From IMG/VR virus record IMGVR_UViG_3300009093_000038: a DNA stretch of 64,000 nucleotides; one strand, given 5' to 3'. The notes beneath the pieces are model-generated. The model saw only the letters and a program-made list of their open reading frames with translations, made no database searches and was not told where the DNA came from. Shown one piece after another: positions 21,276 to 36,557 of this stretch (position 1 is its first letter; each line of letters starts with the position of its first letter). The DNA is from an uncultured virus (IMG/VR IMGVR_UViG_3300009093_000038). Its lineage: Duplodnaviria; Heunggongvirae; Uroviricota; Caudoviricetes. The position numbers and the translations under genes were made by a program.

Positions 21276-21848
21276 TTACCGAATTAGGAACGGGTCCCAC
21301 TCGGGCCGGTCAGCGCGTGGCTCGATCAGCAGGGTAGCCGGGACTTCACGCAGGGCCTTGGGCTTGCGCACAAGCTTCAGACCAGCTTCCTCGGGCGTTT
21401 TGTTCGCCTTGATCTGGTTGATCTTCTTGTCGCACCAGGCCAGGTTTTCCCAGGTGGACTGGCCGCCGCGTGACTGCGGGATGACGTGGTCCAGATTGCC
21501 TTCGCCGGGTCCGAGCAGCCGGTTGGTGTACTGACACCGGTTACCGTCGCGCTTCTTCACGTTCGCCGTGGTGAGCTTCGGCGTCTTCTTCGGCATCCGG
21601 GCGAAAGTGACGCAAGCGATCACGGTTGGAACGCGGACCGGCCCGCGAGTTGTGCCCACAGACCGGTCCCCTTCCCGGATCGGCAAAGTGCGCCATTCGT
21701 CGAAAGTCACCGGTCGCATGGAGTCGGTGTCAATCGCCGTAGCCACGCCACGCACGAGATTGCAGAAGGCCGTCTCGACATTCATCGTGTCGATGGCCTG
21801 CCAGTTCTTGTTCAGAACGAGTACGCTCTCAGTCAGTACGCTGTTCAT
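21276..21848 (-). CDS. HNH endonuclease
   Basis: VLVLN N-terminus; RDGNRCQY, LDHVIPQSRGG, WENL, NQIKANKTP. Confidence 0.92.
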   Translation of the reverse strand: MNSVLTESVLVLNKNWQAIDTMNVETAFCNLVRGVATAIDTDSMRPVTFDEWRTLPIREGDRSVGTTRGPVRVPTVIACVTFARMPKKTPKLTTANVKKRDGNRCQYTNRLLGPGEGNLDHVIPQSRGGQSTWENLAWCDKKINQIKANKTPEEAGLKLVRKPKALREVPATLLIEPRADRPEWDPFLIR

Positions 21849-22441: not shown

Positions 22442-22516
22442 TGGCAGCCTGCTCCGGTTATGCTCCGGCTCCTCTCGGGTCAAAGCCGAGTGCGCTACTG
22501 ATTACGCTATCAGGCC
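22442..22516 (-). tRNA. tRNA-Gln(TTG)
   Basis: Cloverleaf; CTCGG-CTTTGAC-CCGAG arm; encoded CCA. Confidence 0.85.
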
Positions 22517-22615
22517 AAAAAGTACGGATAGCATTGAGTATCTAATTCTGCTGTCTTATAGGGACTGCACAAAAACTAATAACCTACTCAATGCAGTAAA
22601 AACAAAGGGAAAAAC

Positions 22616-23452
22616 ATGAAAGAAAAACTAATCACGTTCGCATCAGCCATCACGCTGTTCGCGGGAATACTCGTCTCAACCGCTCAACCAGTTCCGTGCC
22701 CGGATTGTCCTCCGTGTACGAACTGTCCACCGTACACAAATAATTTTACACCGGCTGAATTTCCAACAAATGCGCTGTTGGTTCGGCAGGCTCAGATCAT
22801 AACGGACGGTACTGTGATCTATGCCGGGAATCCTTGGATACTCGACACGAACAACCTTTTGATGAGCGGCGGAGGTAACTGGACAAGCAACTCACCGACC
22901 AGCACAAATTGGACATACGTCCTGGCCGTAACGAATACGCTACCGGACAGAGTTTACACTATCGAGTACCGGTCGAGCCTAGCTATCACCGGCACAAATA
23001 TAACCGGCTACTTTATCGGGTCTTCAAACGGTATGGAGCTGTTTTTCACCAACACCGTGCCGGGTTTGATAAACAGCGGTTTTTGGCTGGTTGACCAGCA
23101 GCCGGGATTTATTTCTTACGGGATCGGAGCCAGCCGGGCACAGGGCATGGGTCAATTTTTCGGCTGTCCTGGAGCTTATGTTGGTTTCATCGACTTCACG
23201 AATTGGCCGAATACGAAGCGTTTTTATGAAGTCGATACGAACTACGCCACTCATTCAGTGACCGACTTCTATCGTCCCACGAACCACATCCAGCTTTTTT
23301 ATCCCAACGGCGTGGACTGTGCGGTGGGAACAGCCAGCGTGTCGGTGCCAGGAGATTACACGGCGTGGCCATCGGTTTATTTTTTCAACAATTATCCGAC
23401 GAACAAATCGTACTACCTCTGGTTTCAGGGGTTTGTTGAACCCGCTCCGTAA
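22616..23452 (+). CDS. Secreted Thr/Asn-rich hypothetical protein
   Basis: Signal peptide, CPDCPPCTNCPP stretch, followed by a terminator. Confidence 0.7.
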   Translation: MKEKLITFASAITLFAGILVSTAQPVPCPDCPPCTNCPPYTNNFTPAEFPTNALLVRQAQIITDGTVIYAGNPWILDTNNLLMSGGGNWTSNSPTSTNWTYVLAVTNTLPDRVYTIEYRSSLAITGTNITGYFIGSSNGMELFFTNTVPGLINSGFWLVDQQPGFISYGIGASRAQGMGQFFGCPGAYVGFIDFTNWPNTKRFYEVDTNYATHSVTDFYRPTNHIQLFYPNGVDCAVGTASVSVPGDYTAWPSVYFFNNYPTNKSYYLWFQGFVEPAP

Positions 23453-23468
23453 GCGAAACTTTTTCATC

Positions 23469-23499
23469 AACCGACCGGTCGCAAGCCGGTCGGTTTTTT
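23469..23499 (+). terminator. Intrinsic terminator
   Basis: AACCGACCGG-tcgcaag-CCGGTCGGTT plus T-run. Confidence 0.8.
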
Positions 23500-23510
23500 A
23501 TTTTTCAAAT

Positions 23511-23587
23511 TGGTGCCACCCGTGGGATTTGCACCCACTCCCGCCCGGTTAAAAGCCGGATGCTGCATCTATATGAGCTTCGGTGGC
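23511..23587 (-). tRNA. tRNA-Lys(TTT)
   Basis: Anticodon loop CTTTTAA; CCA. Confidence 0.85.
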
Positions 23588-23605
23588 AAAGAAAGTATGT
23601 AGAGC

Positions 23606-24364
23606 ATGAGCAGAAGCGTTAAGTATTACGGCTGGAGGCCAGACGTTCCAGATCATCGCGATTTTCATTACGGCGCTGTCCTTCACGCGGCGGAACAGCT
23701 TCCCATCCCGGACCAGATTGATCTGCGCCCGCTCATGCCGCCAGTTCAAGATCAGGGGGATATTGGTTCCTGCACTGCGCACGCGACAGTGGCCGTCCTG
23801 GAGCATAATATGATCGTGCAGCAGAGGCCGTTCTCCTCTCGGTCGCGCCTGTTCGCCTATTTCAATGCCAGGGCCGCCGAAGGCGCTGAGTCTGGTGACA
23901 ACGGGGCGACGTTGCGTGACATGGTGAGCAGTTTGGCGAGCACAGGCATCTGTGACGAGGACTTGTGGCCGTATGACGTGAGCCAGGTCTTGACCAAGCC
24001 GGTCGATACCTGCTACACGGCGGCGTCTCCGAATAAGATTCGTCTTTATGCGCGCCTGAACTCGCTCGATGACATGCTCGTGTGCCTGGCGGCAGGATTT
24101 CCCTTTATCTTTGGATTCACTGTTTACGAAAAGTTCGAATCCGATGAAGTTGCTCAGAGCGGTATTCTCAGCATTCCGACGTTGGATGAAGCATCGGTCG
24201 GCGGCCACGCTGTCTGCGCGGTTGGGTACGATCGTACCAAGAACATGCTGCTCGTGCGAAATTCCTGGGGTCCTGCGTGGGGCCAGCAGGGCTATTTTTG
24301 GATGCCGTTCGCCTACGCGACAAATCGGAATTTGTCCGATGACTTCTGGACGATCCGGTTGTGA
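23606..24364 (+). CDS. C1 family (papain-like) cysteine protease
   Basis: QGDIGSCTAHA, GGHAV, VRNSWG catalytic motifs. Confidence 0.93.
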   Translation: MSRSVKYYGWRPDVPDHRDFHYGAVLHAAEQLPIPDQIDLRPLMPPVQDQGDIGSCTAHATVAVLEHNMIVQQRPFSSRSRLFAYFNARAAEGAESGDNGATLRDMVSSLASTGICDEDLWPYDVSQVLTKPVDTCYTAASPNKIRLYARLNSLDDMLVCLAAGFPFIFGFTVYEKFESDEVAQSGILSIPTLDEASVGGHAVCAVGYDRTKNMLLVRNSWGPAWGQQGYFWMPFAYATNRNLSDDFWTIRL

Positions 24365-24366
24365 AA

Positions 24367-24450
24367 TGGTGCGCGGAGAGGGAATTGCACCCTCAAGGCT
24401 GACAGGCTCTCGACCTGTACCGTCTTCTATTCCGGTTTAACCACCCGCGC
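24367..24450 (-). tRNA. Atypical tRNA-Leu(GAG)
   Basis: Acceptor and T arm intact, loop TCGAGAG, extra helix, no long variable arm. Confidence 0.7.
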
Positions 24451-24451
24451 A

Positions 24452-24528
24452 TGGTGGACTCGCTCGGGATTGCACCGAGAACCCCCGGCTTATGAGGCCG
24501 ACGCTCTGGCTGGTTGAGCTACGAGTCC
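24452..24528 (-). tRNA. tRNA-CAT (Ile2 or Met)
   Basis: Loop CTCATAA; GGACTCG acceptor is Ile2-like. Confidence 0.85.
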
Positions 24529-24546
24529 TAAATTGTTCTAACCTGC

Positions 24547-25293
24547 ATGAATTTACTCGGTGTTGACGTAGGATTTTCTAAAACGCAGAAAAGCACGGGC
24601 GTTGCTGTTTTCCACAACGACGAGCTGACGGTCTATCGCGCCAACTCCACCTGGGAGGATCGGAAATCCCAACTGCCTGTTGATTTCGTTCCAGAGGCGA
24701 TTGCGATTGATGGGCCTTTACTTCCTGATCTCGTCTTGACGGAATCTGTGCGCCCGTGCGAGCAATTCTTTTCACGCGGCCTGTTTTGCAAGCGGTGTAA
24801 GCCAGGTCTCAGCCACTTTGGAACTGGTTACAGCCTGCGCAGTGCGGCCTTTGATGCCGTCCATCAGTTTGCCGGGCACTGCTACGGTCCAGACTTTCGC
24901 CTGGGTCACGAGATTGCCGAAGCGTTCCCGAACCTTTTTCTCGGAGTCATGGTGGAGGACGGCTGCTATCGGGCGATGCCGAAATTGATTCGCGGCCAGA
25001 AGTTCGACTGGCTTTACGACAACTGTTTGAAAAAGCTCGACCAGCTTCGTGAGTTCGTTCCGCTCACAGAAAAAGTTTACAGTCAGATTCAGGTTGAGAA
25101 CGACCATGAGATGCGCGCCGCCTTGGTTTGCCTGTTGACGGCAGGGCTGGCCGCCAAGAAAACGGCAGTGCGCGCCGGGTGCGATCTCGGCGGTTGGTTT
25201 TGGCTGCCGCCTATGCCGCTATGGGAGCCGTGGGCGATTGAAGCGGCGGAGGCGAACTTTGGGTCATTGCCTCAACCTGCTTCCTCGGAATGA
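24547..25293 (+). CDS. DUF429-like (RNase H-fold) putative nuclease
   Basis: LLGVDVG, IAIDGPL, R..E, AEAFP motifs. Confidence 0.7.
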   Translation: MNLLGVDVGFSKTQKSTGVAVFHNDELTVYRANSTWEDRKSQLPVDFVPEAIAIDGPLLPDLVLTESVRPCEQFFSRGLFCKRCKPGLSHFGTGYSLRSAAFDAVHQFAGHCYGPDFRLGHEIAEAFPNLFLGVMVEDGCYRAMPKLIRGQKFDWLYDNCLKKLDQLREFVPLTEKVYSQIQVENDHEMRAALVCLLTAGLAAKKTAVRAGCDLGGWFWLPPMPLWEPWAIEAAEANFGSLPQPASSE

Positions 25294-25465
25294 TGCACCA
25301 GTCAAGCCCTGGGAATTGAACGGCCACGAACGGGCTGGCCGGATCAGACTTGATCCCTGGGAATTTGATCATCACAACGGAGACCGAAACCAGCTCGCCG
25401 ACCGTGCCCTTTGGCACCAGCGTATCGCCGATCTTGATGGGATATTTTGCTCGGACCTGTTGCAT
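25211..25465 (-). CDS. Small hypothetical protein
   Basis: ATG right after tRNA-Ser; beta-rich sequence; 3' end overlaps the DUF429-like gene. Confidence 0.35.
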   Translation of the reverse strand: MQQVRAKYPIKIGDTLVPKGTVGELVSVSVVMIKFPGIKSDPASPFVAVQFPGLDWCIIPRKQVEAMTQSSPPPLQSPTAPIAA

Positions 25466-25470
25466 AGAAA

Positions 25471-25559
25471 TGGCGGCGGGCGCAGGCTTCGCTCCTGCGT
25501 CGGTGTTACCCGGACTCTCTTTAGCAAAGAGGCACATTACTGGACTCTGTCAGCCCGCC
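25471..25559 (-). tRNA. tRNA-Ser(GCT)
   Basis: Loop TTGCTAA, long variable arm, G73, CCA. Confidence 0.88.
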
Positions 25560-25606
25560 AATTACTAACGAACTACTAATTTGGTATCAATTAGTAGCAA
25601 ATTGAT

Positions 25607-25648
25607 AGTTGGGGAAGAACTCCCGCTCGCGCAGGGTCTTCCCCAACT
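25607..25648 (-). terminator. Stem-loop directly after the Ro60 stop codon
   Basis: AGTTGGGGAAGA...TCTTCCCCAACT inverted repeat; no clear U-tract. Confidence 0.45.
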
Positions 25649-25652
25649 TTGA

Positions 25653-27302
25653 TTAGATGTCACCGCGACAGAAGTCAGCGATGAGCGACGGCGTGGAGGC
25701 GTCGAAACCTACCACGTCGAGCGAACCGGAGTCGTTCGGGTCCGCGATGGTGAACGCGTTGGCCACCATGCCGACTACGACCGAGCGCGCAGCGTTGCCG
25801 CTGGTGCTGCGGTACCGGTTGAGTTCCTGAGCCGGGTGGCTCGAACCCGCGTAGGTCTCGCTGTCGGTCGTTACGACGAACGCGCCGACATCAGCCTTGT
25901 TCTCCCGCGCCCAAACGAACGGGAGCGAGCAGTCGGTGCCTCCGCCGTTGATGCTGTCAGTGAACTTCATGGCGTCCACGAGGCTCATATTCTTGCGAAT
26001 CTTCAGCTCGCGGAAGCCCGTGTCGAAGGCCATCACGTGGATGTTGTCTTCGATGTTCAGGTGGACGAGGGCCAGTGCCGTCTCGGCCTCGCAGCACGAG
26101 AGACACGTTCCCGCCATCTTCTGGGTCATCGAGGCGGACACGTCCAGGCCGAACAGCATCGGCTTGCCGACCGGCTGCACGTTACCGAAGCTGGCGTAGA
26201 ACGCCTGCTCCAGCGCGGCCACGACGGATTGATCTGCTTCCCAGGTCAGCTTGCCCTTCTCGCCGTGCCCCTGGTTGTACACCTTGGAGGCGATCAGGAA
26301 CTGGATCGGATGCACGCGGGACTTCTTCAGCCACTCGGTGTCCTTCAGCTTCTGAACCAGCGACCGGGACGCCTGGGACAGCGGCTTCACGAGACCGACC
26401 GCCGTCATCTTGCCCAGGTTACGGATCATGGCCGTCGCAGGCATCTCTGCCAGCAGCGCTTCCCAGACCTTCACGCTGTTTAGATGCTGCGTCGGAATCG
26501 CTTCGCGGGGCAGGTCGTGCTCCGTGATGAGTGTGATCAGGCGCTTCTCGTCACAGCTCTTGGCTTCCTCGAAGGCTTCGATCAGCTTCGGCAGGCTGTC
26601 CTTGACGGACTCGAAGTTGCGGTCCTTCGGCTCCTTGCCGGGCTGCTTGCGGCCCTTGACGGTGCGGTCACCGAGCGCGTCCTTGCCGCCGACCATCCAG
26701 CGGAAGACTGCGTCCTGGACCTTGTCGTCCGTGCGCGGGTGTGCCAGGCGCAGGAGGTCGGCGTGCGACCATCCATCACGCTGCTGGTATTTGACTGCCT
26801 GCATCGCGAGCTGGTCCACCTTCTTGGAAGTGTACCAGTTGCCCACGGCGCGGCAGAGACCACGGCCCCATCCCCGCTGAGAATTCACATACTGAGCGAA
26901 GTGGAACAGGTGAGTGCCGATGCGTGCGACCTTCGGCAGCGACTCCAGGGCGAATTTCCGCGTTTCCTCGTCCTTGTCCGCGCAGGCCATGGCGAGCGCG
27001 AAAAGAGCAGCTTCATTGCGGTAGGCCAGACCCTTGTCAGAAACTTCGACGATCATCTCGACCGTCTTGCGGCCATTGGCCTTCAGACAGCGCTTGATCA
27101 CGTCGTGGTTTTCCTTCAGGAGGTCCTTCTCCTGGATGTAGTAAGTTCCGCCCTCGGAGCCGAGGATCAGGAACCGGCGAAGACGACCCCAGTCATCGAG
27201 CGCCCAGGAGAATCCGCCTGCGGAGTTCTTGACCTGGTTCGAGTCGGGGATCGGTTCAGTCTGCGGCGTGCGCCGCTTATTCGGTACAGAGTACACTGCC
27301 AT
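25653..27302 (-). CDS. rsr: Ro60 / TROVE-domain RNA-binding protein
   Basis: NSAGGF, RFLILGSEGGTYY, GWGRGLCRAV, KYQQRDGWSHADLLRLAHP, TAMIRNLGKMT, DVSASM vWA MIDAS, GGTDC, DVVGFD. Confidence 0.97.
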   Translation of the reverse strand: MAVYSVPNKRRTPQTEPIPDSNQVKNSAGGFSWALDDWGRLRRFLILGSEGGTYYIQEKDLLKENHDVIKRCLKANGRKTVEMIVEVSDKGLAYRNEAALFALAMACADKDEETRKFALESLPKVARIGTHLFHFAQYVNSQRGWGRGLCRAVGNWYTSKKVDQLAMQAVKYQQRDGWSHADLLRLAHPRTDDKVQDAVFRWMVGGKDALGDRTVKGRKQPGKEPKDRNFESVKDSLPKLIEAFEEAKSCDEKRLITLITEHDLPREAIPTQHLNSVKVWEALLAEMPATAMIRNLGKMTAVGLVKPLSQASRSLVQKLKDTEWLKKSRVHPIQFLIASKVYNQGHGEKGKLTWEADQSVVAALEQAFYASFGNVQPVGKPMLFGLDVSASMTQKMAGTCLSCCEAETALALVHLNIEDNIHVMAFDTGFRELKIRKNMSLVDAMKFTDSINGGGTDCSLPFVWARENKADVGAFVVTTDSETYAGSSHPAQELNRYRSTSGNAARSVVVGMVANAFTIADPNDSGSLDVVGFDASTPSLIADFCRGDI

Positions 27303-27448
27303 TTGATACGCACAGGCGCGCCCCAACTAAGGCACGTTACTGGATTTTCACCATTGGCCGCTGCGGGCGACCTGTTTTCTCACTGCATGACGAATAAGTT
27401 GGCGAACCATCCTCCTCCTCACTAAAGGCGGTGGTTAAGTCCGATTCG

Positions 27449-27673
27449 TCACTTCAAAAGTTCTGGATCGACAAAGACGATGCTGCGACCGTCCTGGCCG
27501 ATCTGAAGATGGCGGGTTGTGTTCCCCTCCGTAATGGAAATGGTTTTGTCGCCGAGGACGACGCTGCCTGGTGCCAGGTTCAACTCACGGGCGATCTTGT
27601 TCGCGGAGTCAGCGGTTGTCGGTTTGAAAATGTTGTCGAGGATTACGGTCTCGATCTCGGTTTTACTTAACAT
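27449..27673 (-). CDS. Small hypothetical protein
   Basis: 74-aa ORF coupled to the upstream ORF; strand chosen from operon context. Confidence 0.45.
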   Translation of the reverse strand: MLSKTEIETVILDNIFKPTTADSANKIARELNLAPGSVVLGDKTISITEGNTTRHLQIGQDGRSIVFVDPELLK

Positions 27674-27875
27674 ATTCTTTGAGCTTCGAAAAGGTTTCGT
27701 TGGTCATCAGCAGCACTTCCTGTGTCTGCCAGTCAATAGTAGAACCGGAAATCGGATGGTCTTCTCGCGAAATGTTTCCGGGAGAAAAATCCACCTTGGC
27801 CGTGAAATCCACCCGGAAGTTCGCGCACTGTGGCGGAAGCTGATCCAGGAGTTTTTTCAGATCGGTCACAGTCAT
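27663..27875 (-). CDS. Small hypothetical protein
   Basis: MTVTDLKKLLDQLP phage-type N-terminus. Confidence 0.55.
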   Translation of the reverse strand: MTVTDLKKLLDQLPPQCANFRVDFTAKVDFSPGNISREDHPISGSTIDWQTQEVLLMTNETFSKLKEYVK

Positions 27876-27883
27876 AAAAAATC

Positions 27884-28027
27884 GCGGGCAAGTTATTAGA
27901 GTCGGAAATCTCCCTTACGGGAGACCGCTGCTCTGCCAGTTGAGCTAACCCCGCCGAGTTTGGGCGGAGTCCTGGAATCGAACCAGGAACCAACGGTTTG
28001 ATAGATAACCAACTACATTCGGCCCGC
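27884..28027 (-). ncRNA. yrlA: Y RNA, YrlA-like (Ro stem plus permuted T-arm/acceptor/D-arm module)
   Basis: GCGGGCCGA...CTTGCCCGC bulged-C stem; GGTTCGATTCC precedes TAGCTCAACTGGCAGAGC. Confidence 0.88.
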
Positions 28028-28341
28028 TAAATTGATGCGCCACGAAGGCGTTCGAGGCGGGGATCGCCGCCACCCGAGCGATAAATCTCGCTTCCAGGGA
28101 TTTCGCTTACGCTGTCGTCTTCATTGGTGATTGTCAGGACCATGCTGTCCTCGTCCCAGGTCCAGCCTTTATCACCGCAGCCTGCGGAGTTGTTGGCGTC
28201 TCGAACCCATTTGGCGATACCGGCTAGTTCCGAGTTCGGGTCTGGTTCCAGGCTGCCCTCAACGCTTTTAGTCAGATCGTCTTCACCAGGAAGATCAGTT
28301 TCCAGCACAAAGCGAACGATTCGATTGATTTCTCCGCGCAC
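28027..28341 (-). CDS. Hypothetical acidic protein
   Basis: GTG start after GTAGTTA; WTWDE segment resembles WDWDG in 49912..50742. Confidence 0.55.
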   Translation of the reverse strand: MRGEINRIVRFVLETDLPGEDDLTKSVEGSLEPDPNSELAGIAKWVRDANNSAGCGDKGWTWDEDSMVLTITNEDDSVSEIPGSEIYRSGGGDPRLERLRGASI

Positions 28342-28351
28342 GATTTAACTA

Positions 28352-28536
28352 CTGGCAAACAAGTGGTGAAAAGGGATCGGTTGTTATGGCCTTCCTTACG
28401 GGACCCTCACGGGTTTGCCGCAGTCGAAACGAGTCCTCATTCTCAGAGAGAACTTTGGACGCTCCCTATGCCCTGTCGCCAGGTGGTCAGTACCTTAGGG
28501 CCGTTATATGGATAACCCTCATCATCGGCTCGCCAG
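28352..28536 (-). ncRNA. Y-like RNA with multi-GNRA-hairpin domain
   Basis: CTGGCGAGCCGA...GGTTATC...CTTGTTTGCCAG; internal GCGA, GTGA and GTAA hairpins. Confidence 0.75.
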
Positions 28537-28540
28537 AAAT

Positions 28541-28953
28541 TGGTGGAGATGGCGGGAGTTGAACCCGCGTCCTTGGCGCTAATGCCAGCTACCACTACAC
28601 GCTTATCCGGTCTTTAGAGCAGTCTGGACAGTCCCGGATTCTGTTAATCCAAACAGGCTCGGTTCTTCGTCCCGAAAAGAAGCGCCGATTTGTCCGCTCG
28701 GCACCCACACTTGACCTGCTGTTGCGTTCATCCACCGTAGCAGGAGTCCAGCGGTGAACGTCGAAGCATTTAAGCTACGAGGTCGGCTTCAACATAGCCG
28801 AACTGAGCAAGGATCGCGTCAGCTTCGGCCAGGGAAGGAGCCATTTCATTTGCGTTAGCATTTGAGTTTTGATGAGAGGATTAACGTGGCCAACCCATCA
28901 TCCACGGCGTGCGGTTTCAGTCACTAACACTAAGTCGAAACCAGTACATCCCC
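28541..28953 (-). ncRNA. ssrA: tmRNA
   Basis: 5' GGGGATGTACTGGTTTCGAC; 3' GGGTTCAACTCCCGCCATCTCCACCA; G3-U70; tag ORF 28859..28770. Confidence 0.95.
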
Positions 28954-29155
28954 ACAAAGATTCAAAGATCAAAAATAAACCACCGCCCTCCGGCCTCATG
29001 CGCCTCCACCCCTGAAAGTCACGCAGGCCGAGTGACGGCGGAAGTTCAAAATCGGTTGCCGCCAGCAAGTCCGTGGAAAAAACCCGCTGCGCCGATTTTT
29101 CGTCCACGGTCTTTCGGCGGGCTACTCATACGTGTCACCACGGCTAATCGAAAAC

Positions 29156-29215
29156 GGCGGGCAAGTAGTTGATGCAGGGGTTTATTCCAAGATAACCCTG
29201 CGCCTTCGGCCCACC
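29156..29215 (-). ncRNA. Minimal Y-like RNA (about 60 nt)
   Basis: GGTGGGCCGA...GGGTTATC...CTTGCCCGCC. Confidence 0.75.
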
Positions 29216-29355
29216 TAAAACAGGGCAGCTTTCGCCGCCTCCACCATCTGGTGAATGCACCAGAACAACTCAGAGAGGAAAGGGACTGTCATTGGACCTT
29301 ACCGCTTAGCGCCAGTCACCTTCATCCGGTCGCATGGGACTTCCCTCTGAGAAAT

Positions 29356-29432
29356 TGGTAGCGGGGGTTGGATTTTAACCAACGACCTCCAGGTTATGAG
29401 CCTAGCGAGCTAACAGGCTGCTCCACCCCGCA
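29356..29432 (-). tRNA. Initiator-like tRNA-fMet(CAT)
   Basis: TGCGGGGTGGAGCAGCC 5' end, 1-72 mismatch, loop CTCATAA. Confidence 0.88.
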
Positions 29433-29459
29433 GTCCAGAAATTCAATGAACTGCCAATA

Positions 29460-29487
29460 CATCTAGCAGGAAGGAAAAAGGTGTCAA
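29460..29487 (-). promoter_or_regulatory. Possible internal sigma70 promoter for the fMet/tmRNA/Y RNA/Ro60 block
   Basis: TTGACA-N16-TAGATG; weak -10 element. Confidence 0.4.
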
Positions 29488-29517
29488 CTTATTTTGTAAA
29501 CCTTTTCCAGTTTGAAA

Positions 29518-29601
29518 TGGTCGCGGTCGAGAGAATTGCACTCTCAAGGCTCACTGTTTTTGAAACAGGCCCCTCTGCTGTTCGGGGTAAACCAGACCGC
29601 G
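29518..29601 (-). tRNA. Atypical tRNA-Leu(CAA)
   Basis: Loop TTCAAAA; extra GGTTTA/TGAGCC helix; CCA. Confidence 0.7.
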
Positions 29602-29602
29602 T

Positions 29603-29678
29603 TGGTACTCCAGGTCGGGGTTGCACCGACAACGCACGGGCTTTAAGGCCGTCGCCTCTGCTGTTGGGCTACTGGAGC
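29603..29678 (-). tRNA. tRNA-Leu(TAA), short variable loop
   Basis: Loop CTTAAAG; CCA. Confidence 0.8.
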
Positions 29679-29754
29679 AAAATATGTTCAGTGATCGTAG
29701 TTATATAGTCGCCCACTGGGCGGTGAAACAGAAACAAAACGAAAGGTAAATAAC

Positions 29755-30075
29755 ATGTTAAACCTCACAGATTCACAGCAGGTGGCCCTCACGGTTGCTT
29801 TTGCTGATAAGGCCGGAAACCCGGCTCCTGTGGATGGCGCGCCTGTTTGGACCAGCTCAGACGAAACCGTTGTGACGGTGACGGCTGCGGCGGATGGTCT
29901 TTCAGCAGTCGCGACCGCTGTCGGCAAACTGGGCACGGCCCAGGTGTCGGTCGCGGCGGACGCCGATCTCGGCGCTGGCAACACGACCATCACGGGTGTC
30001 ATTGACATCACGGTGTTGGCCGGTGCCGCTGTCGCAGCGGTCGTCTCGGCGGGCGCTCCCACGGAGAAGCCCTAA
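29755..30075 (+). CDS. Ig-like domain protein
   Basis: PVWTSSDETVVTV...GKLGTAQVSV pattern of Big_2-type domains. Confidence 0.75.
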   Translation: MLNLTDSQQVALTVAFADKAGNPAPVDGAPVWTSSDETVVTVTAAADGLSAVATAVGKLGTAQVSVAADADLGAGNTTITGVIDITVLAGAAVAAVVSAGAPTEKP

Positions 30076-30123
30076 TTCAAATCGGATGGGCGCGTGTAAT
30101 GCGCGTCCATCCACCAATTTTAC

Positions 30124-30270
30124 GTGAAACCTTTTTGGGGATTTTTATCGGGCCTCGTGATAGGCATCGCTTTTACGGCTTTCTATTTTCTCAAAAAGAA
30201 GTCGAACGCTTCGAACAATAAGGCAGTGAAGGTCATCATCACTGCGGGAAAGCCGACTGAGAAGCCGTAA
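30124..30270 (+). CDS. Small membrane protein (48 aa, not in the ORF track)
   Basis: N-terminal TM helix; C-terminus AGKPTEKP mirrors AGAPTEKP of the upstream gene. Confidence 0.55.
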   Translation: MKPFWGFLSGLVIGIAFTAFYFLKKKSNASNNKAVKVIITAGKPTEKP

Positions 30271-30271
30271 A

Positions 30272-30347
30272 TGGTACCGGGAACAGGAATCGCACCTGCA
30301 ACATCTGGTTCCTAAGACCAGCGCCTCTGCTATTGGGCTACCCCGGC
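30272..30347 (-). tRNA. tRNA-Leu(TAG), short variable loop
   Basis: CTGGT-CTTAGGA-ACCAG; CCA. Confidence 0.85.
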
Positions 30348-30352
30348 TGAAA

Positions 30353-30436
30353 TGGTCGCCGCGAGACGAATTGCACGTCCAAGGCTCACTGATTCTGAAT
30401 CAGGCTCGTCTGCTGTTCCGAGTAAACCACGCGGCG
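30353..30436 (-). tRNA. Atypical tRNA-Leu(CAG)
   Basis: Loop TTCAGAA; extra GGTTTA/TGAGCC helix; CCA. Confidence 0.7.
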
Positions 30437-30438
30437 GA

Positions 30439-31635
30439 CTAAGAAGTTTCTTCGACTGCTGGAAAGGTTTTTATCGCGGCAGCGAGCGTCGATCGTACCT
30501 GGCCGAAGCGATGGGTCGCACACCAATACCAGGTTTTGCCGTTCACCACTGACTTGCGAATGGCGGGCGTTGCTGCGCCGTCGAGACCGTGGTGCCAGAC
30601 TGCGCCAGCTTTCATCACCTGAGATCGTTCTGCCGGATCGAGCTGACGAGTGTGCTTTTTCAGCGTCTTGATCTCGGGAGATTCGTTCAGCCGGGATTCC
30701 GCAAACGAAACTTCATCGGGATTCTCCGGGGGATGGTCGTGAACAGTGTAGCCGAGCTTCTGGAAAACCAGCTTCGTCTTTTCGTGCCATTTCTCAGGGT
30801 CATTCGGATCACCGTGGACCAGTTCAACCGTGCGCTTGTTTTTGTCGATGTGATAGACCTGGCCGGTGGCCGGAACGACCCACTCAGCTTCTGACCGGAG
30901 CGTGCGGAGCATGTTATTGAACCAGGCCAGCACGTGCGGCGAGGGTTCCCATCCTTCCATCGTCTCCAGGAGGAAATCTGCGAACGGAAAGTTTGCCGAT
31001 TCTTTTACTTCGCCGGTGTTCTTCTTCACGCTGACTGCTTTATCGTCCCACAGCTCGATCATGTGATGGTCCTTCAGATTGGTGATTTCGAGGTCCGGCA
31101 GTTCATTGTCCTTCAGCCATTTCTTGATGGCGTTGACTGACTTCTCATCATCTGCCCGAGCTGTGAAAATTTTGACTTTCTTTCCGTGGCCGACCCACCG
31201 GCGAATGCGCGCCACCATTTTTGGCACCGGTTCACCGATCTTCGTGGCTCCCTTGTAACCGGTGTATTTCGCCAGGGTGCCGTCGAGATCGACGCCGATC
31301 CAGCCTTCTTCGTCCTCGCTGTCCAGGAGCGCTGACACGATGGATTCCGCAGCTCCAACAATGCTTTGATTCTTGACCGGAAAGTAAGTCAATACCTTTC
31401 GACCGGATGTATCAGAGATGTGCCAGCCTTCACTGTCGAGAACTACAGGCATTCCCAGTCGGTGCGGCCAGGTGAGATGGGATGTGAAATCTTTGGTTTT
31501 GAAAATGGCCTCTTTCGGTGTGTTTTCCAGCACCGTTACTTCTTCCGGCGCGCTTGCACGTGGGTTCACGTGGTTCGTCCTGATCCAGCGACTGCCGGGC
31601 AGCATTGCTTTCTTGAACTCTGAGGCAAAATTCAT
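30439..31635 (-). CDS. Multidomain protein with HAD-superfamily (PNKP phosphatase-like) domain
   Basis: WIGVDLDGTLA, IFTAR, LWDDKA motifs. Confidence 0.75.
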   Translation of the reverse strand: MNFASEFKKAMLPGSRWIRTNHVNPRASAPEEVTVLENTPKEAIFKTKDFTSHLTWPHRLGMPVVLDSEGWHISDTSGRKVLTYFPVKNQSIVGAAESIVSALLDSEDEEGWIGVDLDGTLAKYTGYKGATKIGEPVPKMVARIRRWVGHGKKVKIFTARADDEKSVNAIKKWLKDNELPDLEITNLKDHHMIELWDDKAVSVKKNTGEVKESANFPFADFLLETMEGWEPSPHVLAWFNNMLRTLRSEAEWVVPATGQVYHIDKNKRTVELVHGDPNDPEKWHEKTKLVFQKLGYTVHDHPPENPDEVSFAESRLNESPEIKTLKKHTRQLDPAERSQVMKAGAVWHHGLDGAATPAIRKSVVNGKTWYWCATHRFGQVRSTLAAAIKTFPAVEETS

Positions 31636-31653
31636 GCGTCACCGTACTTACAT

Positions 31654-31730
31654 TGGCGCTCCGAGCAGGACTTGCACCTGCAACCTTCGGTTTCGAAGAC
31701 CGCCGCTCTGTCTCTTTGAGCTACCGGAGC
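31654..31730 (-). tRNA. tRNA-Arg(TCG)
   Basis: Loop CTTCGAA; CCA. Confidence 0.87.
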
Positions 31731-31750
31731 AAATCTGTTCTAAAATTGCG

Positions 31751-32449
31751 ATGAGTAAAGAAAACCTTGAGCGAGTGCTAGAAAACGCCAACCAGGCGGA
31801 CTGGGAAATTGCCAGCCAGGCGTGGTTTCGTTACAACAAGATCGTGGGCGGCATTGCAGAAAGATGTAATGCCACGACCCGCGTTGGAGCGGCTGTTTTC
31901 GCTGCTCTCAGCCCGAACAATGATTACCTTGGTAATTTACGCGACACGGCGCGCTTGCTGATCGCTGCTGACGGCGGTTTGAGCATCGACGATTTCAAGG
32001 TCTCAACTTACGGTGCAAACAAGGCCAAAGCGTGGCAGATCGCGCACGGGGTCGAACCTCTGCATTTGATCGTTGCACCGAAGACGCGCAATTTCTTTTT
32101 GAACGTGGCCAATCCGATGGACCCTCACCCAGTAACCGTGGACGGTCATATTTTTAACGCGTGGGCGGCTAAGCGAATCCCGCTCAACAGCGCTCAGATG
32201 AAAGGGTTTTCCAAGCAGTACGATCGCGTGGCGGATACCATCCGTGAGATCGGACTGGAGCGTCGTCTTCTGCCGAACTTCGTTCAGGGCCTCATTTGGT
32301 ACTGCTGGAAGCGAATGCACGGGATCAAGCTCGACGGCCAGATGGAATTTTGGGGTTCGGACTACCTGGTGGCCGGTCTTGGCTTTGAGATCGAGAGCAA
32401 GCCGGTCAAGGACTGGCAGCAGGAGATCGCTGGTCAATTTGCTGCGTAA
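31751..32449 (+). CDS. Phage protein with HhH DNA-glycosylase-like motifs
   Basis: AALSP, KTRNFFLN, VTVDGH, VQGLIW; start ATG 31751. Confidence 0.6.
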   Translation: MSKENLERVLENANQADWEIASQAWFRYNKIVGGIAERCNATTRVGAAVFAALSPNNDYLGNLRDTARLLIAADGGLSIDDFKVSTYGANKAKAWQIAHGVEPLHLIVAPKTRNFFLNVANPMDPHPVTVDGHIFNAWAAKRIPLNSAQMKGFSKQYDRVADTIREIGLERRLLPNFVQGLIWYCWKRMHGIKLDGQMEFWGSDYLVAGLGFEIESKPVKDWQQEIAGQFAA

Positions 32450-32450
32450 A

Positions 32451-32525
32451 TGGTGGAGACAACAGGAGTTGCACCTGAAACCTTCCGCGTGTCGAGCGGG
32501 TGCTCTACTTCAGAGCTATGCCTCC
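32451..32525 (-). tRNA. tRNA-Val(GAC)
   Basis: Loop TCGACAC (C33); CCA. Confidence 0.83.
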
Positions 32526-32536
32526 GTAATTAAGGT

Positions 32537-33193
32537 GTGAAAGTCGGCGAATTCGATGTCGAAGTGCAAAGCGCCCGCGTTGGCGGAGGCTGGCAGGCTG
32601 TGGGTATTCTTCCCGATGGAAAAAAGATCGTTTCCGGCCCGTGCAGCTCTCGTGAGACCGCAGAGCATGACATTAAGCAGCAAGCGCTTGCCCGGCTTTA
32701 CGTTCAGCGTAAGTATGATGTAAACAGACCGTTTGAATCTATGAGCAAGCTTGGCGAAAATAAATTTCTGAAGGGCGCGATCAATCCTGATCACAAGGGT
32801 TATTGCACGCCGATGAGCAAGAGCACCTGCACTCCGCGCCGCAAGGCGCTGGCGCGTCGTTTCAAAAAGGGCGGCGATCTGCACCACGAATCTCTCAGTG
32901 AAGCGGACATGGCCATCGTGCTGCACCAGGCGGACCAGCTCCTGGAAGATGCTCGCGATTACCTTGAACTTTCGCTCGACGGCAACCAGATCGAGCGTCC
33001 AGAATGTCCGCATTGCGGCGGTGATCAGAGCGAGCCGGTCGGCGACGGTCGTCATAATTGCCCGCAATGTGGCGGCGTGTTCAGCGCCAATGTGAATCAG
33101 TATCCGGCAGGTCCGCTGCCTCCAGGTAAAGCTTCGTTTTACCCGAGCGACGGCGGCGGCACTGGTGGCGGCAGCGGTATGGCAAACATGTGA
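32537..33193 (+). CDS. Hypothetical protein with Zn ribbon
   Basis: CPHC...CPQC; GTAATTA upstream. Confidence 0.6.
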   Translation: MKVGEFDVEVQSARVGGGWQAVGILPDGKKIVSGPCSSRETAEHDIKQQALARLYVQRKYDVNRPFESMSKLGENKFLKGAINPDHKGYCTPMSKSTCTPRRKALARRFKKGGDLHHESLSEADMAIVLHQADQLLEDARDYLELSLDGNQIERPECPHCGGDQSEPVGDGRHNCPQCGGVFSANVNQYPAGPLPPGKASFYPSDGGGTGGGSGMANM

Positions 33194-33933
33194 AACCGAT
33201 AGGCAAAGGGTACGGCGGATTTGATATTTATCCGACAGTCGAGAAGCGCTACAAGTGCGACCGCTGCGGGTATATCAGCAAACAGTCCACGAACACGTTT
33301 GAACCGACGTGGTCATGGGACCGCGTGAATGTTTGTCCCAACTGCCCGCCCTGGGCAAAGTACCCTCAGTTCGGCGGCCAGACGACGTGGACTTGCATCG
33401 ACACGCCGGACATGTTTCCAGACGAGGAGGCCGGAGAGCAGTCCATGTCGGAAGCAATCTTTCAGGAGGCCGATGCGTTGCTTCCATCACCTTCACAGGA
33501 TACTGTTCTATTTGAGATGGGTGACGAGACCATAGAGCGAATGGACGTTTACGAACTTCCTAGCGATGAATCCATCGGTTTTACGGCCAAGGTTGATGGC
33601 GAATACATCGAAGGAGCGCAGCGCGGAGGTAATGGATTCCATCAGGGAATGATTATCGTAAGCAACCCGCAAAAGGCTCTCCAGATAGGTGAGCAAAAGG
33701 CTAAAAATGACGGTAAGAAGAAAGCTTACGTCGAGGTCCGCGATTTCAATTACAAGCAATTAAGGGCGGTTCTACAGGCGACCGGGGAGGGGGTATGGAT
33801 GGATAGGGACGTATTCATCAAGTTCAGGGATGCTTCCGATAAAGCAGGTGAACTAGGTCCAGACGACGCTCTTAGGAAATATCCTCTCGACGGTAAAAAT
33901 TACTGGATTCAGCTTCCTCCAGGCCGAAGCTGA
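33190..33933 (+). CDS. Hypothetical protein with N-terminal Zn ribbon
   Basis: CDRC...CPNC; coupled to the upstream gene. Confidence 0.6.
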   Translation: MKPIGKGYGGFDIYPTVEKRYKCDRCGYISKQSTNTFEPTWSWDRVNVCPNCPPWAKYPQFGGQTTWTCIDTPDMFPDEEAGEQSMSEAIFQEADALLPSPSQDTVLFEMGDETIERMDVYELPSDESIGFTAKVDGEYIEGAQRGGNGFHQGMIIVSNPQKALQIGEQKAKNDGKKKAYVEVRDFNYKQLRAVLQATGEGVWMDRDVFIKFRDASDKAGELGPDDALRKYPLDGKNYWIQLPPGRS

Positions 33934-33934
33934 G

Positions 33935-34010
33935 TGGAGCCAGTCGCAGGAATTGCACCCGCCGTCTCCCGATTACAAGTCGGGCGCATCGCTGTCAATG
34001 CTTGACTGGC
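33935..34010 (-). tRNA. tRNA-Thr(TGT)
   Basis: CCCGA-CTTGTAA-TCGGG; CCA. Confidence 0.87.
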
Positions 34011-34083
34011 ATTTGTAAACATTTTCTAGTTGTGGGCACATCACCCACTGGTTGTCAACGAGGATAGGAACCAGATTGACGCC

Positions 34084-34347
34084 ATGAACCTCATGCACGT
34101 TGTACCCGCGTTTGGAGAAGTTACGTTCGGCGGTGGCGGAGACGGACTTGTCCACTCACTTTTCCTCGTTTTAATTATCGGCATCTGCGTCGCTCTCATT
34201 TGGGCGGTCGGACGCTGGTTCATTCAGAAGCTCGGCGCGCCAGCGGTGGTAATGACCATCTGGAACGGTTTCTTCATCCTGGTCGGGTTGATCGTCGTGG
34301 TGAACTTCCTGCTCAGCCTCGCTGGACACCCGTTCATTCGGTTTTAG
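34084..34347 (+). CDS. Small two-TM membrane protein
   Basis: Two hydrophobic helices; start uncertain. Confidence 0.6.
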   Translation: MNLMHVVPAFGEVTFGGGGDGLVHSLFLVLIIGICVALIWAVGRWFIQKLGAPAVVMTIWNGFFILVGLIVVVNFLLSLAGHPFIRF

Positions 34348-34423
34348 TGGTGGGCCGCCTCGGTAATGCTCCGAGTTCTCCGGGGTAAAAGCCCGGTTCT
34401 TCGCTTTTCAAAGTTTGCAGCCC
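34348..34423 (-). tRNA. tRNA-Lys(TTT), second divergent copy
   Basis: CCGGG-CTTTTAC-CCCGG; CCA. Confidence 0.83.
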
Positions 34424-34429
34424 GTAAAT

Positions 34430-34505
34430 TGGTGCGTTGGGTCGGCAATGATCCGACACGCTTCCGGGTAAGAACCGGGTGCTCTGCCAGTTGAGCTACC
34501 AACGC
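34430..34505 (-). tRNA. tRNA-Lys(CTT)
   Basis: Loop TTCTTAC; CCA. Confidence 0.87.
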
Positions 34506-34530
34506 AAAAAAGGTCAATGATTTGATATTG

Positions 34531-34651
34531 TTTTAGGAAAACCCATTGTTTTACTAAATCAGTAAAACAATGGGTTTTCCTAAAACCAAGAGTCGATTTC
34601 ACTAAAAAGGGTTGTTTCACTGCGCAGTAAAACAACCCTTTTTAGTGAAAT
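34531..34651. repeat. Two adjacent long AT-rich palindromes
   Basis: 34531..34585 perfect 25-bp arms; 34596..34651 27-bp arms with one mismatch. Confidence 0.9.
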
Positions 34652-34726
34652 TGGTCGCTCCGGGTGGACACGATCCACCGACCTTCAGCTTATGAAGCTG
34701 CTGCTCTCCCTCTGAGCTACGGAGCG
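34652..34726 (-). tRNA. tRNA-CAT (elongator Met or Ile2)
   Basis: Loop TTCATAA; CCA. Confidence 0.85.
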
Positions 34727-34794
34727 TTCGCCCGGCCTTGGTTCGCACCGTGTCTTCTGCACCACCACGCCAAGACAGGGCCGGGTTTGAAAAG

Positions 34795-34870
34795 TGGAGC
34801 CTGCTGACGGAATTGCACCGTCCATTACCCGGTTACCGACCGGGGCCACCGCTGTCTGTGGGTAGCAGGC
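34795..34870 (-). tRNA. tRNA-Thr(GGT)
   Basis: CCCGG-TCGGTAA-CCGGG (C33); CCA. Confidence 0.8.
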
Positions 34871-35276
34871 TTTCGAGAGGTTCGATGACGACATCGGCCT
34901 CGACTGTAAAAATTGGAATGACCTCCTGGAACTTTGCCGCCTTCAGCATGTCATTGCTGTATCGTGCCTCGACACCGTCAGCGACCGAGATCGTAATGTG
35001 CGGAAATTGATTTTCACTTTTCGCGCCAACCAGGACGGCTTGGGCTTTTTCATCGGAAGCGAATCCGAATACCGGTATCCGCAGGCGCTCACCTTCCAGG
35101 CTTTTATAGCGCTCCAGCGTTTGCGCGTCCGGTTTGAAGGCCATCGTGACGTGGTGTGCGTAAACAACCGCGTGCTGCGGTGGAAAACGGCGCAGCAGCT
35201 CTTGGTGGCTTTCCGGCGTCAGCACGGCACTGATGAATACGCCAGGTTCGTTCAGAGGTAATCGTTCGGTTGACAT
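34833..35276 (-). CDS. 2H phosphoesterase (2',3'-cyclic phosphodiesterase-like)
   Basis: Two HxT motifs, HHVTMAF and PHITISV. Confidence 0.8.
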   Translation of the reverse strand: MSTERLPLNEPGVFISAVLTPESHQELLRRFPPQHAVVYAHHVTMAFKPDAQTLERYKSLEGERLRIPVFGFASDEKAQAVLVGAKSENQFPHITISVADGVEARYSNDMLKAAKFQEVIPIFTVEADVVIEPLESLLPTDSGGPGR

Positions 35277-35488
35277 GGTGGTTCAGGTTGCGGCCAGCCG
35301 CCTTCAGGAGGCATCGCTGGAGGCCATGCTGGCCCAGGGTAACAGTACCGGCAAAAAGCCCTTTCCTCGTTATATCCAGGAACGTCCTTGCGAACGTAAA
35401 CAGTGTGGCCGCAGCTCAGTCCGAACTTTGCCAGAACGACTGTTCCGGTGCCTTCTTCACCGTGTTTGCAGACTATTTTCCTGAACAT
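35252..35488 (-). CDS. Small putative Zn-binding protein
   Basis: LSCGH...CRYC. Confidence 0.45.
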   Translation of the reverse strand: MFRKIVCKHGEEGTGTVVLAKFGLSCGHTVYVRKDVPGYNEERAFCRYCYPGPAWPPAMPPEGGWPQPEPPCQPNDYL

Positions 35489-35491
35489 AAA

Positions 35492-35566
35492 TGGTGCGCC
35501 ATGTCGGTGCTGCCCCGACTTATCCTGTTTGGAAGACAGGCTCCTTAGCTGTTGGGATAATGGCGC
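35492..35566 (-). tRNA. tRNA-Gly(TCC)
   Basis: CCTGT-CTTCCAA-ACAGG; CCA. Confidence 0.83.
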
Positions 35567-35567
35567 G

Positions 35568-36311: not shown

Positions 36312-36323
36312 CGCTTTAACTAC

Positions 36324-36399
36324 TGGAGGCCGGTATCAGAATTGCACTGATGTAATGCGGTTTTGCAGACCGCTGCCTTGCTTCTCGAACCAACCGGCC
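36324..36399 (-). tRNA. tRNA-Cys(GCA)
   Basis: GCGGT-CTGCAAA-ACCGC; U73, CCA. Confidence 0.88.
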
Positions 36400-36403
36400 A
36401 AAG

Positions 36404-36479
36404 TGGAGCCTCCGGTCAGAATTGCACTGACCATCTCCAGTTTACGAAACTGGCGCACCGCTGGCTGTGCGTCGGAGGC
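36404..36479 (-). tRNA. tRNA-Thr(CGT)
   Basis: CCAGT-TTCGTAA-ACTGG; CCA. Confidence 0.85.
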
Positions 36480-36483
36480 AAAA

Positions 36484-36557
36484 TGGTACCCCGTGACGGA
36501 ATCTCACCGCCTCCATCACTTTGTAAGAGTGAGGCACTGATGTTATGCAAACGGGGC
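36484..36557 (-). tRNA. tRNA-Val(TAC)
   Basis: TCACT-CTTACAA-AGTGA; CCA. Confidence 0.83.

Follow-up and report, generated by a model that had tools for sequence, protein, structure and literature searches.

The four-way-junction cloverleaf is among the most conserved RNA architectures, and its exceptions, i.e. the tRNAs for selenocysteine and pyrrolysine, mitochondrial tRNAs and the allo-tRNAs, are each informative on what synthetases and the ribosome tolerate. The identity sets for serine and leucine differ in this respect, as seryl-tRNA synthetase (SerRS) needs the long variable arm whereas leucyl-tRNA synthetase (LeuRS) does not. Here we describe three genes of 84 nucleotides (nt) in a stretch of 64,000 nt from an uncultured virus of the Caudoviricetes (IMG/VR record IMGVR_UViG_3300009093_000038), the whole of which is referred to as the window. 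The three loci are probably working Leu-decoding tRNA genes of a non-cloverleaf type, denoted H-type tRNA-Leu, that are carried in mobile arrays. The H-type is a conserved tRNA shape, apparently undescribed, with a probable new core helix.

Leucine tRNAs with a short variable region are known. In Streptomyces coelicolor, a type I tRNA-Leu(CAA) with a short variable loop coexists with long-armed tRNA-Leu (Fan et al. 2019, PMC6614811). A single bacterial LeuRS accepts both types for charging, with U8–A14 as an identity element, and charging is unharmed by removal of long-arm base pairs (PMC6614811). The H-type resembles this tRNA and mitochondrial tRNA-Leu in being a leucine tRNA without long arm and in occurring beside long-armed tRNA-Leu in one cell. 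However, the S. coelicolor and mitochondrial type I tRNAs have the ordinary cloverleaf and a variable loop of 5 nt, as do two 76-nt genes of the window (see below), whereas in the H-type a 5-nt insertion after G9 appears to pair with a 7-nt variable region, the T loop carries G55, and the D loop lacks GG. A second point of comparison is provided by allo-tRNAs and irregular tRNAs (Mukai et al. 2017, PMC5389517; review PMC7609411), which are likewise noncanonical tRNAs of bacteria and phages from soil and peat data. In the former, the acceptor/T branch is 8/4 or 9/3, the variable arm is long, the identity is Ser and many different anticodons occur; in the latter, the extra element between acceptor and D stems is a separate loop (PMC5389517, PMC7609411). 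Conversely, the H-type has a 7/5 branch, A73, no long arm and Leu anticodons only, and its extra bases seem to form pairs with those of the variable region. To judge by the passages of PMC7609411 and PMC5389517, the 84-nt fold differs from all noncanonical tRNAs treated there, and no description of it was found in the full-text literature, with subscription journals and supplements outside the scope of the search.

The genomic setting is closer to what has been reported. L-arrays are long same-strand arrays of supernumerary tRNA genes, horizontally spread and present in Verrucomicrobia among other phyla (Santamaria-Gomez et al. 2021, PMC8421152). They adjoin a homing endonuclease and are, in Anabaena, co-regulated with rtcB and induced by translational stress (PMC8421152). 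The window with its 30-gene array and HNH endonuclease gene, and an island of the array-bearing bacterial genome G001 with HNH and RtcB genes, are alike in this respect, both holding a long, sporadic, same-strand supernumerary array next to an HNH endonuclease gene. The available passages of the L-array paper, whose survey used a curated tRNA database, make no mention of a non-cloverleaf tRNA-Leu (PMC8421152).

An earlier note on this DNA had placed three tRNA-Leu genes with a shared unusual fold in the window. They are located there on the minus strand, and the genes and the strands of the additional helix (H) assigned to each are listed here; R1 is a covariance model of the family (see below) and MFE stands for minimum free energy.

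24367..24450, minus strand: H-type tRNA-Leu(GAG), 84 nt, with C33, A73 and encoded CCA (R1 92.8 bits; Rfam tRNA 25.2 bits)
24439..24442, minus strand: putative helix H 5′ strand GGUU (RNA positions 9–12), GAG copy
24397..24400, minus strand: putative helix H 3′ strand AGCC (RNA positions 51–54), GAG copy
29518..29601, minus strand: H-type tRNA-Leu(CAA), 84 nt (R1 94.1 bits; MFE fold with H, z −3.11)
29590..29593, minus strand: putative helix H 5′ strand GGUU, CAA copy
29548..29551, minus strand: putative helix H 3′ strand AGCC, CAA copy
30353..30436, minus strand: H-type tRNA-Leu(CAG), 84 nt (R1 97.7 bits)
30425..30428, minus strand: putative helix H 5′ strand GGUU, CAG copy
30383..30386, minus strand: putative helix H 3′ strand AGCC, CAG copy

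From the 5′ end, each RNA consists of a 7-bp acceptor stem, U8, the sequence GGUUWA and a 4-bp hairpin with the 10-nt loop GAAYAGMAGA. The 3′ half continues with a 5-bp/7-nt anticodon arm, NAGCC, UU, a T arm with the loop UGCAAUU, the 3′ acceptor strand, A73 and CCA. The D-like hairpin has the stems ACCG/CGGU (GAG), CCCC/GGGG (CAA) and CUCG/CGAG (CAG), exactly as the earlier note had read them, and it covaries in the family as well. Compared to the Rfam tRNA model (RF00005), the acceptor stem, discriminator and CCA, and an anticodon stem of 5 bp with a 7-nt loop, U33 (C33 in GAG copies) and a purine at 37 are all present. The T stem is retained, but its loop reads UGCRANU in place of the canonical UUCRANY, and the D loop GAAYAGCAGA lacks G18 and G19. 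Moreover, the acceptor–D connector measures 7 nt (U8 plus six) instead of the two nucleotides 8–9, the four-way junction would be absent, and the gathering score is not reached. The Leu anticodon, A73 and Leu-type D loop of class II tRNA-Leu are kept (GAAUAGCAGA, vs GAAUGGCAGA in the housekeeping Leu(UAG) of G001). The long variable arm, a hairpin of ≥10 nt, is missing, the variable region being 7 nt without a hairpin. A type I cloverleaf with 4–5-nt variable loop does not describe the 84-nt genes either; it is found in the 76-nt Leu(UAA) and Leu(UAG) of the window.

Standard tools largely overlook the three genes. Neither ARAGORN nor Rfam at its gathering score calls any of them; in E-value mode the GAG copy alone appears (25.2 bits vs a gathering score of 29), and the other two are unmatched at E ≤ 10. 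R1 gives 92.8–97.7 bits for the three genes vs at most 50.9 bits for all other tRNAs of the window. Because of this gap, and because 193 distinct relatives occur elsewhere, the three-gene feature is far beyond chance. The MFE folds contain H in all three RNAs (z = −1.62, −3.11 and −1.18).

Relatives were collected by pattern searches. An exact 39-base pattern gave no match in the viral collection (viral_contigs), and looser patterns succeeded. A pattern built from the three window copies retrieved 12 loci on nine IMG/VR contigs, and a second, looser one, which leaves the extra helix free, retrieved 33 viral_contigs loci (of which about half are chance matches), at least 123 stretches in metagenome_contigs and 106 stretches in genome_contigs. 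Membership was defined by at least six of seven acceptor pairs, with the chance match L213 removed; 17 pattern matches with fewer than six pairs, several of them +1-nt variants or chimeric contigs, were excluded. The resulting family comprises at least 193 distinct 84-nt sequences from the viral, metagenome and genome collections, where counts refer to distinct sequences and not to independent lineages. All anticodons are Leu (CAG 71, CAA 62, UAG 27, GAG 25, UAA 7 and AAG 1); the search pattern had fixed only A35 and R36, so Phe anticodons (GAA, AAA) were admissible. In a tally of the 193 members plus L213, the discriminator is A in 192/194, the 3′ CCA is encoded in 183/194, U33 is found in 166/194 and a purine at 37 in 193/194. 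ARAGORN misses 191 of the 193 members and assigns wrong boundaries to the remaining two. Some members carry insertions of 7–61 nt in or beside the T arm (L187:2798-2942, L187:491-581, L245:2473-2563 and L190:2027-2117), for which gene interruption, chimeric assembly and intron-like inserts are possible explanations.

The proposed structure was evaluated on a gapless alignment (A1) of 115 representatives with a mutual identity below 96.5%. Paired cells amount to 96.0%, compared to 70.6% after shuffling and at most 52% with slid partners, and the covariation score of 0.670 (0.194 shuffled) was reached by none of 500 shuffles. The acceptor helix is paired in 99.0% of cells, with both-sided changes at all seven pairs, the D-like hairpin in 88.9%, the anticodon helix in 91.8% (five of five pairs covary) and the T helix in 99.8%; many both-sided changes occur in each of the four. 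This comparison indicates that the family represents tRNA-like RNAs under selection for the proposed fold. The earlier suggestion of a distinct, selected architecture is thereby supported by a large all-Leu family with four covarying helices, in which H is kept in 212 of 246 sequences with compensatory changes (see below).

Helix H is made up of the pairs 9–54, 10–53, 11–52 and 12–51, with G9G10U11U12 opposite A51G52C53C54, and is paired in 98.3% of A1 cells with hardly any variation. The earlier note had drawn it longer, between GGTTTA or GGTTAA and TGAGCC or TCAGCC. Six pairs are indeed possible in the CAA and CAG copies, but the GAG copy has an A·C mismatch, and the additional pairs 13–50 and 14–49 form in 36/115 representatives each and are unpaired in 79/115. 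An extra helix of 6 bp was rejected on this basis, and the conserved helix has 4 bp.

As the initial pattern favoured close relatives, the model R1 was built and run over the flanks of 96 loci. It revealed more distant members with pairing H variants, which were combined into alignment A2. This alignment is fitted to R1, and its H pairs are composed as follows.

Pair 9–54: GC 56, GU 6
Pair 10–53: GC 58, GU 3, AU 1
Pair 11–52: UG 50, CG 7, GC 2, AU 1, UA 1
Pair 12–51: UA 56, CG 3, GC 1

In a model-independent check, sequences were parsed in the best register on the other four helices only, and the two H strands were then read out as the four bases that follow position 8 and the four that precede the UU linker. 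Among 246 distinct sequences, 212 form four standard pairs, 29 form three, and five form two or fewer, three of these five being mis-parses or truncated copies. A score of ≥15 is obtained for 205 of the 246 parsed rows; the 41 low-score parses were counted separately. Variants in which pairing is kept are GGCU/AGCC, GGAU/AUCC, GGAU/AUCU, GGGU/ACCU, GGUC/GACU, GACC/GGUU, GGGG/CCCU and GGCC/GGCC, and GCCU/AAGC, with C–G at 10–53, preserves three of the four pairs. In five of the 193 members, C11·A52 replaces U11·G52. Such a both-sided change from U·G to C·A is wobble-isosteric, i.e. it keeps the wobble geometry. On balance, H probably forms in the mature RNA.

The arrays also contain short leucine tRNAs, of which the window has two.

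29603..29678, minus strand: class-I-type tRNA-Leu(UAA), 76 nt, with D loop AACAGCAGA and T-loop type UGCAA as in the H-type (ARAGORN, Rfam, R1)
30272..30347, minus strand: class-I-type tRNA-Leu(UAG), 76 nt, in like relation to the H-type (ARAGORN, Rfam, R1)

Both are class-I-type cloverleafs, in agreement with the earlier description of Leu(TAA) and Leu(TAG) as short class I tRNAs. They are called by ARAGORN and score 38.7 and 52.6 bits with Rfam. Aligned to R1 they reach 46.5 and 50.9 bits, lacking six bases downstream of U8 and two in the region of the 3′ strand. As the H strand regions appear as deletions in this alignment, the H-type and 76-nt genes constitute one gene family with and without H. 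A long-armed Leu tRNA was not found by ARAGORN, Rfam or R1 in the window, which is part of a genome, and within this scope all five Leu tRNAs lack the long arm, as the earlier note had it. The window Ser (88–90 nt) and Tyr (86 nt) tRNAs keep theirs; retention of the Ser arm and loss of the Leu arm fit the rule that the arm is required by SerRS and dispensable for LeuRS. That bacterial tRNA-Leu is normally long-armed is true of the housekeeping genes of G001, which are canonical, long-armed and 84–88 nt in length, with all five anticodons.

The anticodon does not determine whether a gene is of the H-type or the short type. The H-type anticodons are GAG, CAA and CAG in the window and CAA, UAA and CAG in the G001 array, where GAG belongs to a short gene. 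The array of genome G004 has short GAG, CAA and UAA genes and a single H-type gene, with the anticodon CAG. Both array types have the D loop GAAYAGCAGA or CAAYAGCAGA, near that of the G001 housekeeping Leu(UAG), and the UU preceding the T stem is common to array types and G001 housekeeping Leu. The elbow differs, with an A at the first G of the host GG and a UGCRA T loop (G55) in the array types vs UUCAAGU in the host. C33 is shared by nearly all H-type GAG genes and by the short GAG genes (77 nt) in the arrays of G001 and G004, and the G001 housekeeping Leu(GAG) has U33.

We propose the following model for the three genes and their relatives. With the long variable arm lost, five extra bases after G9 and a variable region of 7 nt, the pairs G9–C54, G10–C53, U11·G52 and U12–A51 would join the connector strands and enclose the D and anticodon arms, so that the core would consist of two three-way junctions in place of one four-way junction. 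H would probably lie beside the D stem and replace the base triples usually formed by positions 9, 45 and 46, because it equals the D stem in length and its ends would link the same two levels, i.e. U8 and a U48-like base at the top and the D/anticodon junction at the bottom. The host LeuRS would charge these tRNAs, and they would be used in translation, since A73, U8, a Leu-type D loop and an encoded CCA are kept and LeuRS needs no long arm (PMC6614811). Long tRNA arrays on jumbo phages and on Verrucomicrobiota integrative islands carry the genes from place to place, and there they would add a second tRNA-Leu pool beside the canonical housekeeping genes.

Several observations weigh against this model, most of them concerning H. 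The sequence of H is almost invariant (of the 205 rows with a score of ≥15, 179 read GGUU/AGCC), so its support is mostly conservation, and the compensatory cases amount to about ten distinct sequences that are possibly of common ancestry and stem in part from the model-fitted alignment. Nearest-neighbour energies favour H by a mere 0.25 kcal/mol on average; it is part of the MFE fold in 65/193 members, with a mean pair probability of about 0.24. In an 85-nt UAA subfamily, 12–51 is often C·A, C·C or U·C. Moreover, H is absent from the 76-nt Leu tRNAs of the same arrays, and a short-armed Leu tRNA therefore does not require it. The elbow is noncanonical, with G55 in the T loop and no GG in the D loop, and 24 of the 25 GAG members have C33 (loop UCGAGAR). 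The near-invariance, the neutral energies and the mismatched subfamily are what would be expected if these were real Leu tRNAs without H, in which the insertion and variable region are single-stranded or make other contacts and are conserved for recognition by LeuRS or another protein. This is rather unlikely, as 212 of 246 sequences are fully paired in H and, where one strand deviates, the partner usually changes to match (GACC/GGUU, GGGG/CCCU, GGUC/GACU, GGAU/AUCC, GGCC/GGCC). The five both-sided changes from U·G to C·A are also hard to explain without base contact.

The noncanonical elbow could also point to RNAs that do not serve in decoding, but act as tRNA-like decoys or regulators, either soaking up tRNA-targeting toxins or serving a Ro60/Y RNA/RtcB RNA-repair module. 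The neighbourhood lends itself to such a reading, with Ro60, a Y-RNA-like element and a transfer-messenger RNA (tmRNA) adjoining the window genes, and RtcB, HipA and AbiEii in G001. A decoy, however, needs no matched anticodons, and the family shows the pattern that decoding would select: Leu anticodons in 193/193 members with five isoacceptors covered, 7-nt anticodon loops, A73, CCA, and one phage with the full five-anticodon set. We regard the decoy reading as improbable. Decaying pseudogenes or chance tRNA-like sequences would account for the failure of ARAGORN on 191/193 members and for Rfam tRNA scores below gathering. Such an origin is hardly credible for 193–246 distinct, alignable sequences of fixed 84-nt length across three collections, with compensatory changes in every stem and R1 scores of 93–98 bits vs ≤51 for other tRNAs. 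Working Leu-decoding genes thus remain the preferred reading of the three loci.

Among the genome_contigs matches, 80 loci come with titles, and true family members are found at 70 of these. The organism labels, as given by the depositors of the metagenome-assembled genomes (MAGs), are Verrucomicrobiota for 58 of the 70, including Opitutaceae, Limisphaerales, Chthoniobacterales and Akkermansia-labelled MAGs; four are "uncultured bacterium" and eight carry other labels. The latter may be mis-binned; seven are on contigs below 17 kb and one is on a 44-kb contig. Some of the 70 loci lie on contigs of 0.5–1.1 Mb, and H-type arrays are found on Verrucomicrobiota contigs of chromosome size. The H-type fold is not phage-only, as it occurs in jumbo phage arrays and in Verrucomicrobiota genome islands. 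On the viral side, a full set of five Leu anticodons, each on an H-type gene, is found in the phage record G155 (238 kb, 96% complete).

In G001, strong R1 matches are confined to three tandem genes (C5:803513-803768) within a run of at least 15 tRNA genes. The canonical tRNA-Leu genes lie outside the array, on other contigs or far off on C5, and H-type genes inside it only. The island (L275, G001:C5:795000-814000) holds, in order, a BsuBI/PstI-type restriction enzyme with methylase, a phage-type integrase, HipA, HNH, the tRNA array, an SPFH protein, RtcB and an AbiEii/AbiEi pair, which places the array amid toxin, defence and RNA-repair genes. The arrays of G002, G004 and the viral contigs have homologues of the window HNH as well as of Ro60. 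An even sample of 151 genomes of the G001 phylum, with 30 candidates scored per genome, gave an R1 match in G001 alone, and the family is for this reason a sporadic accessory and not the standard tRNA-Leu of the phylum. The possibility that it is the housekeeping tRNA-Leu of Verrucomicrobiota was rejected on the same count of 1/151 sampled genomes (30 candidates each) and on the five canonical long-armed Leu genes outside the G001 array.

What the altered shape is good for can be discussed in view of phage tRNAs that can escape tRNA-cleaving defences (van den Berg et al. 2023, PMC10264068) and of mycobacterial tRNA array units described as putative anti-defence systems (PMC12803027). Like the array tRNAs, the defence-escaping phage tRNAs deviate from host tRNAs at positions recognised by nucleases or toxins. 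In the published cases known from these passages the escape is by point changes in the anticodon loop, whereas in the H-type the whole core architecture is changed. The long variable arm is what at least one toxin family recognises, and an AbiEii-family toxin gene adjoins the G001 array. We know of no toxin targeting tRNA-Leu in these hosts. Tentatively, the altered shape might let the H-type escape enzymes that attack canonical or long-armed tRNAs. The H-type could then be a shape-shifted adaptor for immunity evasion, a speculative proposal in which a remodelled core and elbow (helix H, G55, the lack of G18G19, and C33 in GAG copies) would go unseen by nucleases and nucleotidyltransferase toxins while LeuRS, reading A73 and the D-loop region, would still charge it. 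If so, phages and array islands would keep translation running when host tRNA-Leu is destroyed, and this would be the first whole-architecture tRNA remodelling as counter-defence and a new natural tRNA fold.

Beyond this possible example of tRNA shape change as counter-defence, the H-type is a widespread, strongly conserved bacterial and phage tRNA-Leu in which a separate helix appears to form between the two connector strands. The demands that LeuRS, EF-Tu, RNase P and the ribosome place on the tRNA core could be tested with it directly, and it could give a new natural scaffold for orthogonal tRNA engineering. Since ARAGORN misses 191/193 members and the Rfam tRNA model stays below threshold, tRNA counts of such phages and arrays are probably too low and their Leu decoding capacity misjudged.

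The window has a G+C content of 53–58% and encodes a family-A DNA polymerase, an NAD-dependent ligase, a UvsX-like recombinase and a DnaB-like helicase. Further products are glycosyltransferases, methyltransferases, PAPS-reductase-like proteins, an HNH endonuclease, a Ro60 (TROVE + vWA) protein and a patatin-like protein. The ARAGORN calls, 30 tRNAs and one tmRNA, all fall on the minus strand from 24452 to 45131, and Rfam adds six further tRNA matches at the gathering score. The array and two genes associated with it are as follows.

22445..45131, minus strand: long same-strand tRNA array holding five Leu genes (30 ARAGORN tRNAs plus extra Rfam and R1 matches)
21276..21848, minus strand: HNH endonuclease gene at the array edge (homologues adjoin arrays in L275, L284, L283, L012, L001 and L010)
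25653..27326, minus strand: Ro60 (TROVE + vWA) gene inside the array (homologues of 47–63% identity in G002 and G004 arrays and viral contigs)

No named phage relative was usable, because a near-identity search (megablast) of 24000–31000 against the phage collection returned nothing but a 33-base tmRNA match and the window PolA protein had no match above 30% identity among the phage records. Structural genes were not identified within the window itself, a Terminase_6N search of five viral records gave no match, and neither did a search of viral_contigs with the Ro60 protein. We read the window as part of a large, probably jumbo-type, phage from its relatives, which are IMG/VR records of 83–306 kb, two of them with direct terminal repeats and a CheckV completeness of 100%. 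The viral status of these relatives follows the IMG/VR classification (direct terminal repeats, CheckV 96–100%), together with the replication genes that the window encodes. Two further DNA runs, X3 (soil) and X4 (freshwater), have contigs that match the window without one difference over 29482–29702 and 29517–29662, and the same or a very close phage is therefore present in other samples. No RNA run containing the three genes was found; for a run labelled transcriptomic, coverage by contigs is confined to the initiator tRNA-Met (29352–29432), and neither result has a bearing on expression either way.

Inside the array, 25653–28953 (minus strand) forms an RNA quality-control cluster of the Ro60 gene, a Y-RNA-like match and the tmRNA. 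The YrlA-like Y RNA match at 27926–27995 (minus strand) has 32.3 bits, under the gathering score of 69, and the tag peptide of the tmRNA (28541–28953, minus strand) is unusually long. Ro60 homologues are located in the tRNA arrays of G002 and G004 and in viral contigs. The patatin-like phospholipase gene (43703–44584, minus strand) lies within the array between tRNA-Ala and tRNA-Gly. Additional tRNA-like genes on the minus strand, detected by Rfam or R1 and not called by ARAGORN, are found at 22445–22516, 23514–23587, 32454–32525, 36487–36557, 36629–36687, 40336–40407, 34795–34870, 36962–37039 and 41139–41215, the R1 hits of the group scoring 20–32 bits. Noncanonical T loops extend beyond Leu to most array tRNAs, being UGCRA with G55 or of AUC-, AGC- and UGA-type, with D loops that lack GG; a UUCRA T loop is retained in few, e.g. 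in the gene at 36629–36687 and in a putative suppressor. The latter is an 82-nt tRNA at 41222–41303 (minus strand) with the canonical T loop UUCAAGU, directly upstream of tRNA-Tyr (41309–41394). Its anticodon UUA would read the UAA stop codon, and it may serve stop-codon suppression or recoding in the window phage.

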